Shown in pieces: positions 21,753 to 25,315 of a DNA stretch of 64,000 bases (position 1 is its first letter; each line of letters begins with the position of its first letter). The stretch comes from Synechococcales cyanobacterium VAR_4_metabat_354 (GTDB lineage: Bacteria > Cyanobacteriota > Cyanobacteriia > Cyanobacteriales > Chamaesiphonaceae). The notes beneath the pieces were generated by a model, which saw nothing but the letters and a program-made list of their open reading frames with translations, had not been told where the DNA came from and did not search any database. Made by a program: the position numbers and the translations under genes. Location: the NCBI GenBank assembly GCA_031414775.1, contig JANOQI010000046.1, forward strand, positions 1 through 64,000. Direction: 5' to 3'.

Positions 21753-21977
21753 GGGGTGAGGCAATTTCTAATTTTAGAAAATACCCCCACTGACGACCGA
21801 TGTAATTAAAATTGTTTCGCCAATGTTATCTATAAAATAGTTTATTTTGAACTATGCCGCCTCCAATTACAAAAATTTACGTTTAGCTGTCAAAATATCT
21901 CACTTTTTCTTACTTTTAATTTAATTGATTTGGCTACAATTCAACTGGAGATGGATAAAACCCTTGGGATATTTACC

Positions 21978-22505
21978 ATGGCAAAGTACAACGTAGATGA
22001 AGTATTAGACATCATAAAAACCTTCAATCCTGAAGAGAAGAAAGACTTGCAGAATAGATTGGCAAGTGTTCTTGAGCAAACATTCCCATTGCCAAGCCAG
22101 ACGAAAGAAAGCCAGTCGCAGAGTTTTGGCGGTTTTGCCTTCGGCGGCAGTGGCAATAGTACGGCTCTCGGTATCAATCAGCAAATGGGTGGGGAATCCA
22201 ATTTCAATCAGACGAATACAAGTACAAAGGCTTCCTTGCAAAATGTTGATCTGCAAGAAGCTTTGGTGATTTTAGACAAGCTAAAGCAAGATATAGCAAG
22301 TAGTCCGGCGCTTAATTCTGTGCAGAAGGCGACGGTGGATGTGCCGCTGAAGATTATTGAAGAAGAAGCGAACAAGCCAAAACCTGATAAAAATACGATC
22401 AATCAGTCGATCGACAGTCTCAAAAAAGGTTTGGAAGAAACTGTCGGGTTAGCTGAACCATTAGTAAAATTAGCTAGTTTATTGGCTAAGGTGTGCTTGC
22501 TATGA
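21978..22505 (+). CDS. Hypothetical protein: short helical N-terminus, central Q/S/G/N-rich amyloid-like motif, helical C-terminal domain
   Basis: Open ORF from ATG 21978; stop overlaps the next ATG (ATGA 22502-22505); motif shared with the downstream STAND protein. Confidence 0.8.
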   Translation: MAKYNVDEVLDIIKTFNPEEKKDLQNRLASVLEQTFPLPSQTKESQSQSFGGFAFGGSGNSTALGINQQMGGESNFNQTNTSTKASLQNVDLQEALVILDKLKQDIASSPALNSVQKATVDVPLKIIEEEANKPKPDKNTINQSIDSLKKGLEETVGLAEPLVKLASLLAKVCLL

Positions 22506-24697
22506 ACAACCTATCCTCAGAAGAACATGAGCTAAGACAGGATCAAAAGGTTGGTAATATTTCTATTGATGGTCAAAGTAATCAGGTCACGCTGACTTTT
22601 TCTCAAACGCAAATTATTCAGATTGCCGTTGATGAAGTCAAAACTCGTCCTCTTGTTATAACTTCACCCTACAAAGGACTGAAAAAGTTTGAATCAGATG
22701 ATAAAGATCTCTTTTTTGGACGAGATCAGTTTCTGACGGGTTTAGTTAATGAACTAGAGCAAACCAACTTAATCTTGCTGTTAGGAGCATCCGGGAGTGG
22801 TAAATCTTCAGTAGTTCGAGCTGGTGTAATTCCTTGGTTAGTTGGTAAATGGGGTGCACGGTTTGTCAATCTGACATTTACGCCAGACCAAGACCCTTTT
22901 GAATCTTTGTATGCCGGTCTGCTGAGTAAATACAAGCAATCAGAAGCCCAAATTGCTCGTGAAAATAAAATAAATACTCTTACCCAAGTGGTGAAGACGC
23001 TCAAGCAGCCTGATACACAATGGCTCATCTTTATCGATCAGTTTGAGGAGTTGTTTACGACCAGTTCAGCCGAAAAGTGTAAAAACTTTATTGATGGTTT
23101 GATACAAATTACGAGGGAACTAAGTAAGGCAAACGATAGCTCGGTCAAAATTATCGGTACGATGCGAGCTGACTTTCTCGATCGATTAAGTCCTTATCCT
23201 GCTCTGGTCAAGGCAACCGATAAACATCGTCCGATGATTTCAGAAATGCAACCTGATGAATTGCGCCTGGCGATCGAACAACCTGCTGCTCATCACGGGG
23301 TGGTATTTGAAAATGGATTGGTGGAGGAAATTATCAAGGATGTGCAAGGGCAGCCTGGATATTTGCCGTTGTTGCAGTACACCCTAAATTTACTATGGCA
23401 AACAGAGCTGCAAGCGAACAGCCTCGATAACCGCACATTGAATATCAGTACCTATCGGAATTTAGGCGGTGTTCGCGGTACTCTGCAAAAGCATGTAGAG
23501 CAAGTTTATCAAGCACTATCCAAGCCAGAACAATTAGCAACTCAACAGATTTTTCTGAAACTAATCGGTATTGGTGGGGATGCTGAGTCGGAAACGGAAT
23601 GGAAGCCTGTGCGACGAAGGGCTAATCGATCAGAGTTTGATAATCAGCTAGAGCAAAAGATGATGGCTCAGTTGATCGATCAGAATTTGTTGGTTAGTAA
23701 TCGGGAAATTCAATCACAGGAGTCCACGATTGAAATTGTCCATGAAATACTTCTGACCTCTTGGACGATGTTAAGTAACTGGATTCGTGAAAATCGCCTA
23801 GCCATTTCTATTCGTAATCGACTTAATGATGATGTCAAACGTTGGCAGACTAAGAAGGCAGAAGATGAGTTGTGGAATGGATTGAAGCTAGAACAAGTTT
23901 TAAAACTCAAAAAAGATCCAATATTTAATCAAGTTTTGGGTGGTTTTAATCCGGAGGCAGATGAATTCATTGTCACCAGTGAAAAAAGACACAATCAACA
24001 ACGTCATCGAAAAGTTGCTTTAATTGTGGGCTTTTCCACCCTCGCATTATTATCAGCAACTTTATTTGTTACTCTCGGAACTCCTTTTATCGCAAAGTTA
24101 TTCAATGATTGGGGATTTGAAGAACATGAAGCAAAGCGGTTTCCTAGCGCTATACAAAAATATACTTGGTCATTTATGATGAAATCGGATAATAACGTTG
24201 CAATATTTAATCGAGGTAGGGCTTATGACGACAGTAAAGATTTTAATGCTGCGGAAATTGACTATAAAACTTCTATGGCAACAAATCCAAATCTTGTCTC
24301 TGCTTATAATAATCTAGCTCGACTGTATATTGTTAAATGGAAAGATTATCATGGAGCTATTGAATTCCTTACAAGAGGATTGAATTTTCCAAAAGAAAAA
24401 AAATTAAATGAAAAAGAGTTTCAAGAATATAAAAATGCTGAGTATGCCATGCTTAAAAACTTGGGTTGGGCACAATTTAAATTAGGAGATCAAAATGCTG
24501 AAACTAATTTGAAGAAAGCTATTGATTTAGAGCATAAGAGAGGAGCAGCACATTGTCTACTAGCAGAAGTTTTGAAAACCAAGAAGCCTGTAATTGACCC
24601 AAGAAATGAATTGCAAAATTGTATCAATTTTGGTAATCGAAAACTTCCTGAAGAAAGAGAATGGATAGACTCAGCAAAAGAACACTTAAAAATGTAA
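22502..24697 (+). CDS. nSTAND1-type NTPase with one TM helix and C-terminal TPR repeats (NLR-like)
   Basis: SPYKGL..F...D..LFFGR, Walker A GASGSGKSS, Walker B IFIDQFEELF, TMRADF, LPLLQYTL..LW, EIVHEILL..W; TM about 24014-24093; TPRs (AIFNRG.AY, AYNNLARLY, KNLGWAQ). Confidence 0.9.
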   Translation: MNNLSSEEHELRQDQKVGNISIDGQSNQVTLTFSQTQIIQIAVDEVKTRPLVITSPYKGLKKFESDDKDLFFGRDQFLTGLVNELEQTNLILLLGASGSGKSSVVRAGVIPWLVGKWGARFVNLTFTPDQDPFESLYAGLLSKYKQSEAQIARENKINTLTQVVKTLKQPDTQWLIFIDQFEELFTTSSAEKCKNFIDGLIQITRELSKANDSSVKIIGTMRADFLDRLSPYPALVKATDKHRPMISEMQPDELRLAIEQPAAHHGVVFENGLVEEIIKDVQGQPGYLPLLQYTLNLLWQTELQANSLDNRTLNISTYRNLGGVRGTLQKHVEQVYQALSKPEQLATQQIFLKLIGIGGDAESETEWKPVRRRANRSEFDNQLEQKMMAQLIDQNLLVSNREIQSQESTIEIVHEILLTSWTMLSNWIRENRLAISIRNRLNDDVKRWQTKKAEDELWNGLKLEQVLKLKKDPIFNQVLGGFNPEADEFIVTSEKRHNQQRHRKVALIVGFSTLALLSATLFVTLGTPFIAKLFNDWGFEEHEAKRFPSAIQKYTWSFMMKSDNNVAIFNRGRAYDDSKDFNAAEIDYKTSMATNPNLVSAYNNLARLYIVKWKDYHGAIEFLTRGLNFPKEKKLNEKEFQEYKNAEYAMLKNLGWAQFKLGDQNAETNLKKAIDLEHKRGAAHCLLAEVLKTKKPVIDPRNELQNCINFGNRKLPEEREWIDSAKEHLKM

Positions 24698-24731
24698 TTA
24701 ATACACCTTGAAAATTTGAGGAATATAGATT

Positions 24732-25178
24732 ATGAATTGTAAGATATTTACCCCATTTGGCTTGGGATTAGTCTTGATGTTAACTTCTATTTTGGTTGCA
24801 ATTGATGCTCATATAGCACTCTCTTGCTACGTTAATCCTTGTTGGTTTGAAGATTATGGAGGCGGAAGAAAGGGTCCTGCGTACAAAGAAATAGATTTAG
24901 CTCAAAAATTTATAGAAATAGGAAATTATAAGGAGGCCAAGGATAATCTAATCAAGGCGCTAGAAATAACAAGAAGTAGTGGTGATTTAGCAGGGCAAGC
25001 AATCGTTTATAAAGGGCTAGCAGAAGTTTCAGCTGCATCTGGAGAAAAGAAAAAAGCGACTTCATATCTTGGTAAGGCAAGTAATGTGTACAATCGCTTG
25101 GGCAATTCAACTAAGGTCATACAATTAAATCAACAGATTAAAAATATTAATAGGTTGAAAATACAGAACACTAGATAA
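24732..25178 (+). CDS. Small TPR protein with N-terminal signal peptide or TM
   Basis: Hydrophobic FGLGLVLMLTSILVAI; TPR-like GNYKEAKDNLIKALEI..GDLAGQAIVYKGLA; GAGG RBS. Confidence 0.75.
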   Translation: MNCKIFTPFGLGLVLMLTSILVAIDAHIALSCYVNPCWFEDYGGGRKGPAYKEIDLAQKFIEIGNYKEAKDNLIKALEITRSSGDLAGQAIVYKGLAEVSAASGEKKKATSYLGKASNVYNRLGNSTKVIQLNQQIKNINRLKIQNTR

Positions 25179-25315
25179 AATATTTTGTGCCAAAGGTTTA
25201 AGACAAGATCTAATAAATTACCTTGGATTTCCTTTAGTTGAAAAAATTGAGTAAAAACCAATCCGTAAAACGCTTTTAGTACAGTGGTTTATGGATTGTT
25301 CTGTTTAGGTTTATC

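Follow-up and report, generated by a model that had tools for sequence, protein, structure and literature searches.

A small helical protein and an adjacent nSTAND1-TPR receptor share a short motif: a candidate amyloid-signalling pair in a cyanobacterium

The gene pair and its shared motif

We analysed a stretch of 64,000 nucleotides (the window; contig JANOQI010000046.1, positions 1 to 64,000, forward strand) from Synechococcales cyanobacterium VAR_4_metabat_354, and within it a pair of genes that an earlier note, made from the letters alone, had proposed to be an amyloid-signalling system built around a NOD-like receptor (NLR). The first gene (21978..22505, plus strand) encodes a small partner protein of 175 aa, here called the effector, that consists of a hairpin, a motif and a four-helix bundle. 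The second gene (22502..24697, plus strand) encodes a receptor of 731 aa with a motif, an nSTAND1 NTPase, a transmembrane (TM) helix and tetratricopeptide (TPR) repeats. The stop codon of the effector and the start codon of the receptor overlap by 4 bp as ATGA at 22502-22505.

The effector-side copy of the motif (aa 46-68; 22113..22181, plus strand) reads QSQSFGGFAFGGSGNSTALGINQ, is rich in Q, N, G and S and follows the sequence pattern strand, Gly turn, strand, and the receptor-side copy (aa 13-35; 22538..22606, plus strand) reads QDQKVGNISIDGQSNQVTLTFSQ. Aligned without gaps they have 7 of 23 residues identical and four hydrophobic pairs (F/V, F/I, F/I and I/F), and no local alignment of the two regions scores higher than this ungapped match. 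The earlier note had given the coordinates, the peptides, this alignment and the ATGA overlap, all of them exactly. The pair has a BLOSUM62 score of 35, which was matched by 54 of 10,000 shuffles and by 15 of 5,000 in a second run (p about 0.003-0.005). A hidden Markov model (HMM) of the effector motif, built from 53 effector-side rows and zero receptor sequences, found the adjacent receptor as its top non-self match among the 5,563 open reading frames (ORFs) of the genome, with an E of 0.042 against 0.88 for the next match. The window pair carries the long-turn variant of the motif and its turn-length state is concordant. On the effector side the motif is followed by an extension (aa 69-79; 22182..22214, plus strand) with a further unit of the type G-G-x-x-h-x-Q, which has a receptor counterpart in three homologous pairs (L014, L015 and L017) and none in the window pair. 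A complex prediction with three effector motifs and the receptor N-terminus scored 0.01, gave no answer and was not used as evidence.

The receptor proved to be of the nSTAND1-TPR type that had been suggested, as its NTPase domain (aa 56-455; 22667..23866, plus strand) matched PF20703 with an E of 4e-110 and 369 bits against a cut-off of 27.1, with both Walker A (aa 95-103) and Walker B (aa 176-183) present. Just 55 residues, which include the motif, lie ahead of this domain, in agreement with the claim that no enzymatic effector domain precedes the NTPase. A predicted TM helix (aa 505-523; 24014..24070, plus strand; mean Kyte-Doolittle hydropathy, KD, 2.3) follows, and then the TPR repeats (aa 567-627; 24200..24382, plus strand) as putative sensor, which would lie outside the cytoplasm because a basic stretch precedes the TM helix. 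A hydrophobic segment after the NTPase was found in 13 of 14 complete homologous receptors, and the C-terminal sensor varies among homologues between TPR, WD40, pentapeptide and other repeats or domains. The idea that a membrane-anchored nSTAND1 is atypical did not survive, as "nSTAND1+TM" is listed 461 times in one source-data file (PMC8195603) and is thus a common architecture.

The AlphaFold2 model of the effector contains a hairpin (residues 6-35, helices 6-14 and 18-35), a low-confidence stretch (36-84) with the motif in it, and a confident four-helix bundle (83-174), which bears out the placing of the motif between two helical regions. The N-terminal hairpin module is an amphipathic stretch of 35 aa (aa 1-35; 21978..22082, plus strand) and the constant bundle module covers aa 89-175 (22242..22502, plus strand).

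Matched motifs in homologous pairs

Homologues of the effector were detected in 22 of 301 genomes of the order, in 10 of 401 genomes of the phylum, at 22 metagenome loci and on three plasmids, and in just one of nine other genomes of the same genus. The close family was found in 26 of 401 genomes of the order, and a search with distant small relatives found the wider bundle family in 50 of 251. The cassette is patchy and mobile. Among 55 distinct effector sequences, taken from all loci with close relatives included, 45 have an nSTAND1 neighbour, 43 downstream and two upstream, so that the two genes are usually neighbours, as had been predicted. Of the ten without such a neighbour, five lie within about 620 bp of the end of their locus. 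The order is reversed, with the receptor first, at L071:5674-6722 and L074:4305-8143, and the receptor of L071 is cut to 121 aa yet retains a matching motif.

Co-variation was determined from 49 loci with both parts; after removal of those whose bundle was truncated, a redundancy filter at 60% identity left 21 pairs. The mean motif score was 61.0 for cognate and 31.9 for non-cognate combinations (z 10.2; 0 of 20,000 permutations), and other redundancy levels gave similar values (80%, n=26, z 10.7; 50%, n=18, z 9.0). Control regions (bundle against receptor, linker against P-loop) gave a z of about 0. The score cut-off of 40 used for motif pairs by Dyrka et al. (10.1101/2020.01.06.895854) was reached by 17 of the 21 pairs, and for 17 of the 21 the cognate receptor ranked in the top three. 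The median identity of cognate motifs was 46%; BASS pairs that cross-seed are reported at 43-56% (10.1101/2020.01.06.895854). Two plasmid pairs scored 50 and 61, and four later close-family pairs that had not been selected scored 57, 32, 37 and 64.

The partners also share an indel of one residue in the glycine turn. When both sides were aligned together with no knowledge of which motifs belong to one pair, the residue was present in both partners of 9 pairs, absent from both in 11 and discordant in one, so that 20 of 21 were concordant, with a Fisher p of 3e-5 that is overstated because kin are not independent. Both turn states occur within one NTPase clade supported at 98/100 (L002, L017, L048 and L056 with the residue, L005 and L034 without it). 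Congruence of the NTPase and bundle trees is not claimed, because both are poorly resolved, with 3 of 16 starred branches each. The evidence at the family level is strong: the motif is kept and co-varies in homologous pairs, as the earlier note had expected, and on sequence grounds it is under joint selection at the protein level.

These results bear on an alternative in which the likeness would be a chance resemblance of low-complexity Q/N/G/S linkers, a product of genome composition, or the trace of a recent DNA duplication or gene conversion. It can draw on the window match, which taken alone is no stronger than the p value given above, and on the shared composition that lifts non-cognate scores (32 against 20 for controls). 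Among 255 identical residues, however, 115 shared a codon where 118.4 were expected, which indicates that selection on the protein, not copying of DNA, maintains the match, and gene conversion or duplication was rejected for want of a codon-level excess. The cognate excess (z=9-11), the indel concordance and the presence of orthogonal pairs in one genome argue in the same direction, and we regard this already tested and unsupported alternative as highly improbable.

The orthogonal pairs come from the genome of the window itself. A second pair (L139, G000:C33:46171-48658) consists of a helical protein of 150 aa located 28 bp before another nSTAND1 gene; this partner has a hydrophobic N-terminus and a C-terminal motif, a Bell-type layout by eye, with no Pfam match. 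Its cognate score is 82 (0 of 5,000 shuffles). When the two pairs were compared two by two, the cognate scores were 82 (contig C33) and 35 (the window, C46) and the cross scores 24 and 25, and genome-wide composition as the cause was rejected by this test. The second pair thereby offers a partner that is Bell-type by eye for an nSTAND1 receptor. Swap experiments on amyloid specificity could make use of the co-varying indel and of the orthogonal pairs found in a single genome.

Matching was also found at greater distance. At six of 13 distant loci the N-terminus of a neighbour matches a motif different from that of the close family; four had no such neighbour within 1.5 kb and three were cut by contig ends. 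The six partners comprise three NACHT proteins, one nSTAND1, one TPR-like and one unannotated protein. Ten pooled pairs scored 54.2 for cognate against 25.2 for non-cognate combinations, with 7 ranked first, a figure that is partly selected because the six distant partners were chosen by eye. Homology of the distant bundles is supported, not strong (HHalign 82%, E 1e-5, for L108). At L108:1-1836 a minimal gene of motif and bundle, with a G-V-Q-I-G core, is followed by two genes with a matching N-terminal motif, one of them NACHT by Pfam and one cut, and the first bears the motif twice. At L098:1-3351 just 13 bp separate a gene with pentapeptide repeats, motif and bundle from a downstream NACHT gene, and the N-terminal copy of the motif in the NACHT protein is a close one (score 87), which makes this the best peptide test pair among the distant relatives.

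Motif and bundle also end membrane pentapeptide-repeat proteins at L022, L041, L097, L098, L101, L103, L105, L106 and G000:C24:23169-25289. In 9 of 10 pentapeptide fusions examined a Met is located 127-146 residues from the C-terminal end, just before the motif, at a background Met frequency of 0.87% per residue. This Met is possibly an internal start that gives a free protein of motif and bundle, or a fusion scar. An internal Shine-Dalgarno sequence before the motif was not supported in the long fusions (3 of 17 against 3 of 49).

The partner protein and the proposed mechanism

The 175-aa effector matched no Pfam or NCBIfam family, and in a scan of 53 homologues HetE-N was not among the 25 families listed at E<=0.05, with no Bell-specific HMM applied. 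When 119 representatives were classified with sub-HMMs, hairpin, motif and bundle occurred together in 49, and motif and bundle without the hairpin in 21, so that 70 of the 119 have motif and bundle. The bundle alone was detected in 40, many of which are fragments or distant relatives, and hairpin and motif without bundle in 2. Scanning of 38 representatives detected CHAT in 10 (9 above the curated cut-off), TRADD-N in 2 (one together with CHAT), and HetE-N, AbiTii and COR-B in one each; the bundle also stands behind pentapeptide domains in relatives. Because the front modules vary (hairpin, CHAT, TRADD-N, HetE-N or none), the constant effector unit is, as read from these sequences, the motif followed by the C-terminal four-helix bundle, behind a front module that is swappable or absent. 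The central position of the motif claimed by the earlier note therefore stood, but it follows from this modular layout, in which the hairpin is one front module among others. Minimal genes of motif and bundle exist on long contigs (L015), and their products are the only visible partner of the receptors at L015, L040, L107 and L108. Longer fused forms (325-2000 aa) were not found in a search for them, a weak one because it missed the known CHAT fusions too.

Some relatives combine these parts in other ways. P0081 carries a HetE-N (Bab/Bell-type) domain before motif and bundle, and so has both candidate effector domains in one chain. At L023 and L069:3793-4881 a CHAT-type effector with an extra upstream motif-like stretch stands between genes for a NACHT and an nSTAND1 protein, with a caspase gene next. 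The N-terminus of the NACHT gene product has a stretch similar to this extra one, and one effector is possibly wired to two receptors there. Broken or truncated family members were seen at L019, L045, L054 and L064.

The last helix of the bundle is its most hydrophobic one (mean KD 0.83 against -0.29 to 0.08 for the other helices). Pro161 is kept in 51 of 53 homologues, and position 173 is Trp in 43 of 53 and Cys in the window copy; the near-invariant positions are M, L, L, K, E, P, L, L and P, none of them catalytic-looking. Foldseek on the bundle returned nothing at E<=0.001, a sequence search of the PDB no match below E 0.05, and the best 50 fold-search matches listed included no HeLo, MLKL or Bab entry. 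In 48 of 53 homologues the bundle region was matched by the C-terminal 100 or so aa of the models for the PADLOC candidate PDC-M14B (best E 1e-9), which is a partial match. Atlas feature neighbours include DUF4404 and DUF5955 clusters at 0.85-0.89, all under 0.9. All of these are taken as leads only. Neither these two families nor PDC-M14B were named in the literature searched. Six proteins of about 120 aa (P0111, P0118, P0119, P0121, P0128 and P0132) have an N-terminal Gly/Asn-rich stretch and a related bundle. The Atlas neighbours of such proteins, found in Chloroflexota, Actinomycetota and Pseudomonadota, have a DUF4404 or DUF5955 domain, and the bundle module may for this reason reach well beyond cyanobacteria.

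By analogy, amyloid signalling pairs are recognised by matched selection on a motif that is short, unstructured and rich in Q, N, G and S, with one copy at the N-terminus of a STAND protein and the other in its neighbour. BASS motifs are described as rich in Q, N, G, V and I and poor in K, P and L (10.1101/2020.01.06.895854), and the composition of the window family agrees with this (Q 14.4, S 13.7, G 10.8, N 10.5, V 7.9, I 7.0, K 1.8, P 2.3 and L 3.0%). Because linkage, co-variation, composition and pair identity all fit BASS, we consider, with a probability of about 0.75, that the two genes form a BASS-like NLR/effector system of the amyloid-templating type, in which the receptor motif would nucleate a fold that templates the partner motif. 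All genomic predictions of the earlier note for such a system stood, and the mechanism itself is drawn by analogy with BASS, HET-S and Bab. The TPR domain beyond the membrane anchor would bind a ligand, probably related to an invader or to damage, and the nSTAND1 protein would then oligomerise, as STAND proteins of the NLR and Avs type do on ligand binding (PMC10907252, PMC13601566). This would cluster the N-terminal motifs and nucleate a cross-beta or beta-solenoid fold, which would template the matching internal motif of the small protein. Stacking may cluster or open the adjacent bundle, whose hydrophobic last helix would damage the membrane and lead to abortive cell death; in relatives the same stacking might bring CHAT proteases or a Bab/Bell-type domain together. 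For the whole chain with the bundle as killing output we would put the chances slightly below even. If the scheme is true, the membrane-anchored receptor of the window would convert a signal outside the cytoplasm into a cytoplasmic amyloid switch.

A number of observations weigh against this interpretation. The window pair is among the weakest of the set, with 30% identity and a score under the published cut-off of 40; its own receptor ranks only 6 of 21 receptor N-termini, the effector motif scores 52 with a non-cognate receptor, and the reverse HMM made from the receptor side does not recover the effector at E<=3. Over the 21 pairs the cognate receptor ranked first in just 9, and it was top-ranked in 2 of the 4 unselected later pairs, and the two pairs of genome G290 do not discriminate (85, 66, 61 and 62). 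No nSTAND1 gene lies within at least 1.5 kb to either side of five of the 55 homologues, a matching neighbour is missing from four distant tails fused to pentapeptide repeats, and the cassette is flanked by housekeeping genes and not by a defence island. As to the output, the last helix (best 19-mer KD 1.54) is weaker than a typical transmembrane helix, the fold search finds generic four-helix bundles only (best Z 10.6-11.5), and the bundle is kept in proteins that already bear CHAT or HetE-N. The top structural matches are unrelated bundles with a Z of 10-11.5 and a root-mean-square deviation of about 2-2.5 over 83-98 residues.

The weakness of the window pair could mean that the family is functional and the window copy decaying or drifted out of register. 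Its score of 35 and 30% identity lie under the published cross-seeding range, the conserved Trp is replaced by Cys, and broken family members do exist. However, neither ORF is broken and Walker A and B are present, the orthologous cassette L024 is intact as well, the turn length is concordant, and other pairs are as weak (L005 30, L056 35 and L114 32), and we consider decay improbable.

The points on the output bear on the main alternative, in which templating is real and the bundle is not the killer but solubilises the motif or caps fibrils, and the hairpin-type protein acts as amplifier, adaptor or decoy for an effector elsewhere; the non-toxic HET-s is a model for the decoy role. The persistence of the bundle behind CHAT and HetE-N fits a regulatory role equally well, and it is kept likewise behind CHAT with TRADD-N, AbiTii, COR-B and pentapeptide domains; no catalytic-looking residue is conserved in it, and orphan copies exist. 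On the other hand, the genome contains no third motif protein, as the effector-side HMM finds the pair alone at E<0.8, and minimal genes of motif and bundle are sole partners at several loci. We hold such a non-killing bundle to be unlikely, though worth serious attention. If the bundle kills it would be a new cell-death domain, and if it caps or solubilises the motif, a natural amyloid regulator.

In a further alternative the matched motifs engage in a finite beta-strand interaction, such as beta-augmentation or a short homotypic solenoid, as an EAD/Death-like adaptor without self-propagating amyloid. Co-variation indicates matched selection and not fibrils, effectors mostly have one clear motif copy, and homotypic adaptor pairs on adjacent genes are described for nSTAND1 systems (PMC8195603). 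The motifs, however, are 20-35 residues long, unstructured in monomer models and BASS-like in composition and spacing, whereas the described EADs are globular domains; moreover, BASS motifs picked by the same genomic logic formed fibrils (10.1101/2020.01.06.895854, 10.1101/2024.11.07.622273). A finite interaction thus appears quite unlikely to us.

Taken by analogy, the putative templating pair works like Bell/BASS, Bab/Agp and NWD2/HET-S, and it is not a member of the Bell family. Like the Bell systems with BASS1-10 (10.1101/2020.01.06.895854) it has adjacent effector and STAND genes, which in cyanobacteria often overlap by 4 bp, a motif of about 25 aa rich in Q, N, G, V and I at the receptor N-terminus that matches a partner motif, CHAT as alternative effector, and a similar pair identity. 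In contrast to them, where the motif is C-terminal and the hydrophobic helix N-terminal, the window partner has its motif before the bundle and its hydrophobic helix last; Bell receptors are NB-ARC or NACHT proteins and the window receptor is nSTAND1-TM. The window partner also lacks the Bell domain, the N-terminal helical domain of about 80-100 aa that opens with a hydrophobic MEPIS-type helix in Bell and Babybell. The G-h-Q-h-G core of BASS3, PP and RHIM is absent from 42 of 42 close-family motifs. The short-turn variant h-x-h-G-D/S-G-N, carried on both sides by 7 of 21 pairs, resembles by eye, except for the Gln, the V-Q-I-G-D-G-N examples of BASS3 (PMC8086366), and in a comparison by eye with the BASS1-10 example sequences of that source no family looked identical.

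The anti-phage system Bab/Agp of E. coli (BASS11) likewise has two adjacent genes, a shared amyloid motif and a small helical effector (10.1101/2024.11.07.622273). The HetE-N domain before motif and bundle in P0081 adds to this likeness, and HetE-N1 genes are located upstream of TPR+GreAB-C+PIN genes (PMC8195603 source data), in the position of Bab in Bab/Agp. Bab differs by its C-terminal motif and N-terminal killing helix, and Agp is a TPR-GreA/B-PIN protein with no STAND domain (10.1101/2024.11.07.622273). With NWD2/HET-S (PMC7889193) the pair shares an N-terminal NLR motif that matches the product of the adjacent gene, and the occurrence of orthogonal pairs in one genome, whereas HET-S has an N-terminal HeLo domain with two C-terminal pseudo-repeats and its receptor is a cytosolic NACHT-WD protein. 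The NTPase is of the same clade as in the nSTAND1 conflict systems, which often have TM segments with beta-propeller or TPR repeats (PMC8195603, PMC7159879), and for which Kaur et al. list fused CASPASE+nSTAND1 and split CASPASE -> nSTAND1 arrangements (PMC8195603). Linkage in these systems differs in that it is by globular adaptors (EAD/Death-like) or by proteolysis (PMC8195603, PMC7159879), and the window partner has no match to the EAD or EACC1 Pfam models. The word "amyloid" occurs in the main text of PMC8195603 in one reference title alone, and is absent from the accessible text of PMC7159879.

The inverted layout of motif and then bundle mirrors that of Bell and HET-S, where the motif is C-terminal, and by this analogy the feature is best filed among amyloid-signalling NLR systems with an inverted putative effector. 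No description of such an effector layout was found in the literature searched; supplements and subscription papers outside it may hold one. Dyrka et al. screened the C-termini of Bell proteins next to NB-ARC and NACHT genes (10.1101/2020.01.06.895854), and the review by Daskalov and Saupe (2021) names the C-terminal screening bias as a gap, with only RHIM as a motif that may act centrally (PMC7889193). The window family falls into this gap and offers many natural matched pairs. More tentatively than for the killing chain of the window pair, one may think of a second class of amyloid-controlled effectors, widespread in bacteria and of reversed polarity, in which the amyloid motif is N-terminal or internal and precedes a four-helix bundle that ends in a hydrophobic helix, the reverse of the order in Bell, HeLo and MLKL. 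Such a unit would have been joined to the back of CHAT, TRADD-N, HetE-N, pentapeptide, COR and AbiTii domains, and many orthogonal motifs, one of them with a RHIM-like core, would connect it to sensors of the nSTAND1, NACHT or TPR type. If it exists, screens confined to effector C-termini would have missed such effectors.

The cassette and its surroundings

The receptor gene is followed by a gene for a TPR protein of 148 aa with a hydrophobic N-terminus, a signal or an anchor (24732..25178, plus strand), which is a possible accessory of the TPR sensor and was found in the closest orthologous cassette only. In this cassette (L024) the effector is 91% identical to that of the window. The three genes form a low-GC cassette of 3.56 kb (21753..25315, no strand assigned; 38% GC against 46-49% in the flanks) between a gene for a GAF/SpoIIE phosphatase and lpxD. 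A scan for promoters and terminators was not above shuffles (11 against 9.3 and 1 against 2.7, respectively), and no RNA holder was listed for the stretch. A possible anti-phage role has indirect signs only, namely the patchy low-GC cassette, the plasmid copies and the partial PADLOC match.

A search with lpxD covered five genomes of the same genus without the effector, two of which were opened. In one of them (L066) the flanking genes are 31 bp apart and the site is empty, and in the other lpxD is followed by different cargo, with a duplicate of the lpxD 3' end as boundary. In this genus cargo seems to integrate preferentially at the 3' end of lpxD. At L065 (G125:C6:91204-96094) that end is duplicated (53 codons, 96% identical) around other cargo, which consists of a protein with a periplasmic-binding domain and two apparent sugar-phosphate metabolic genes.

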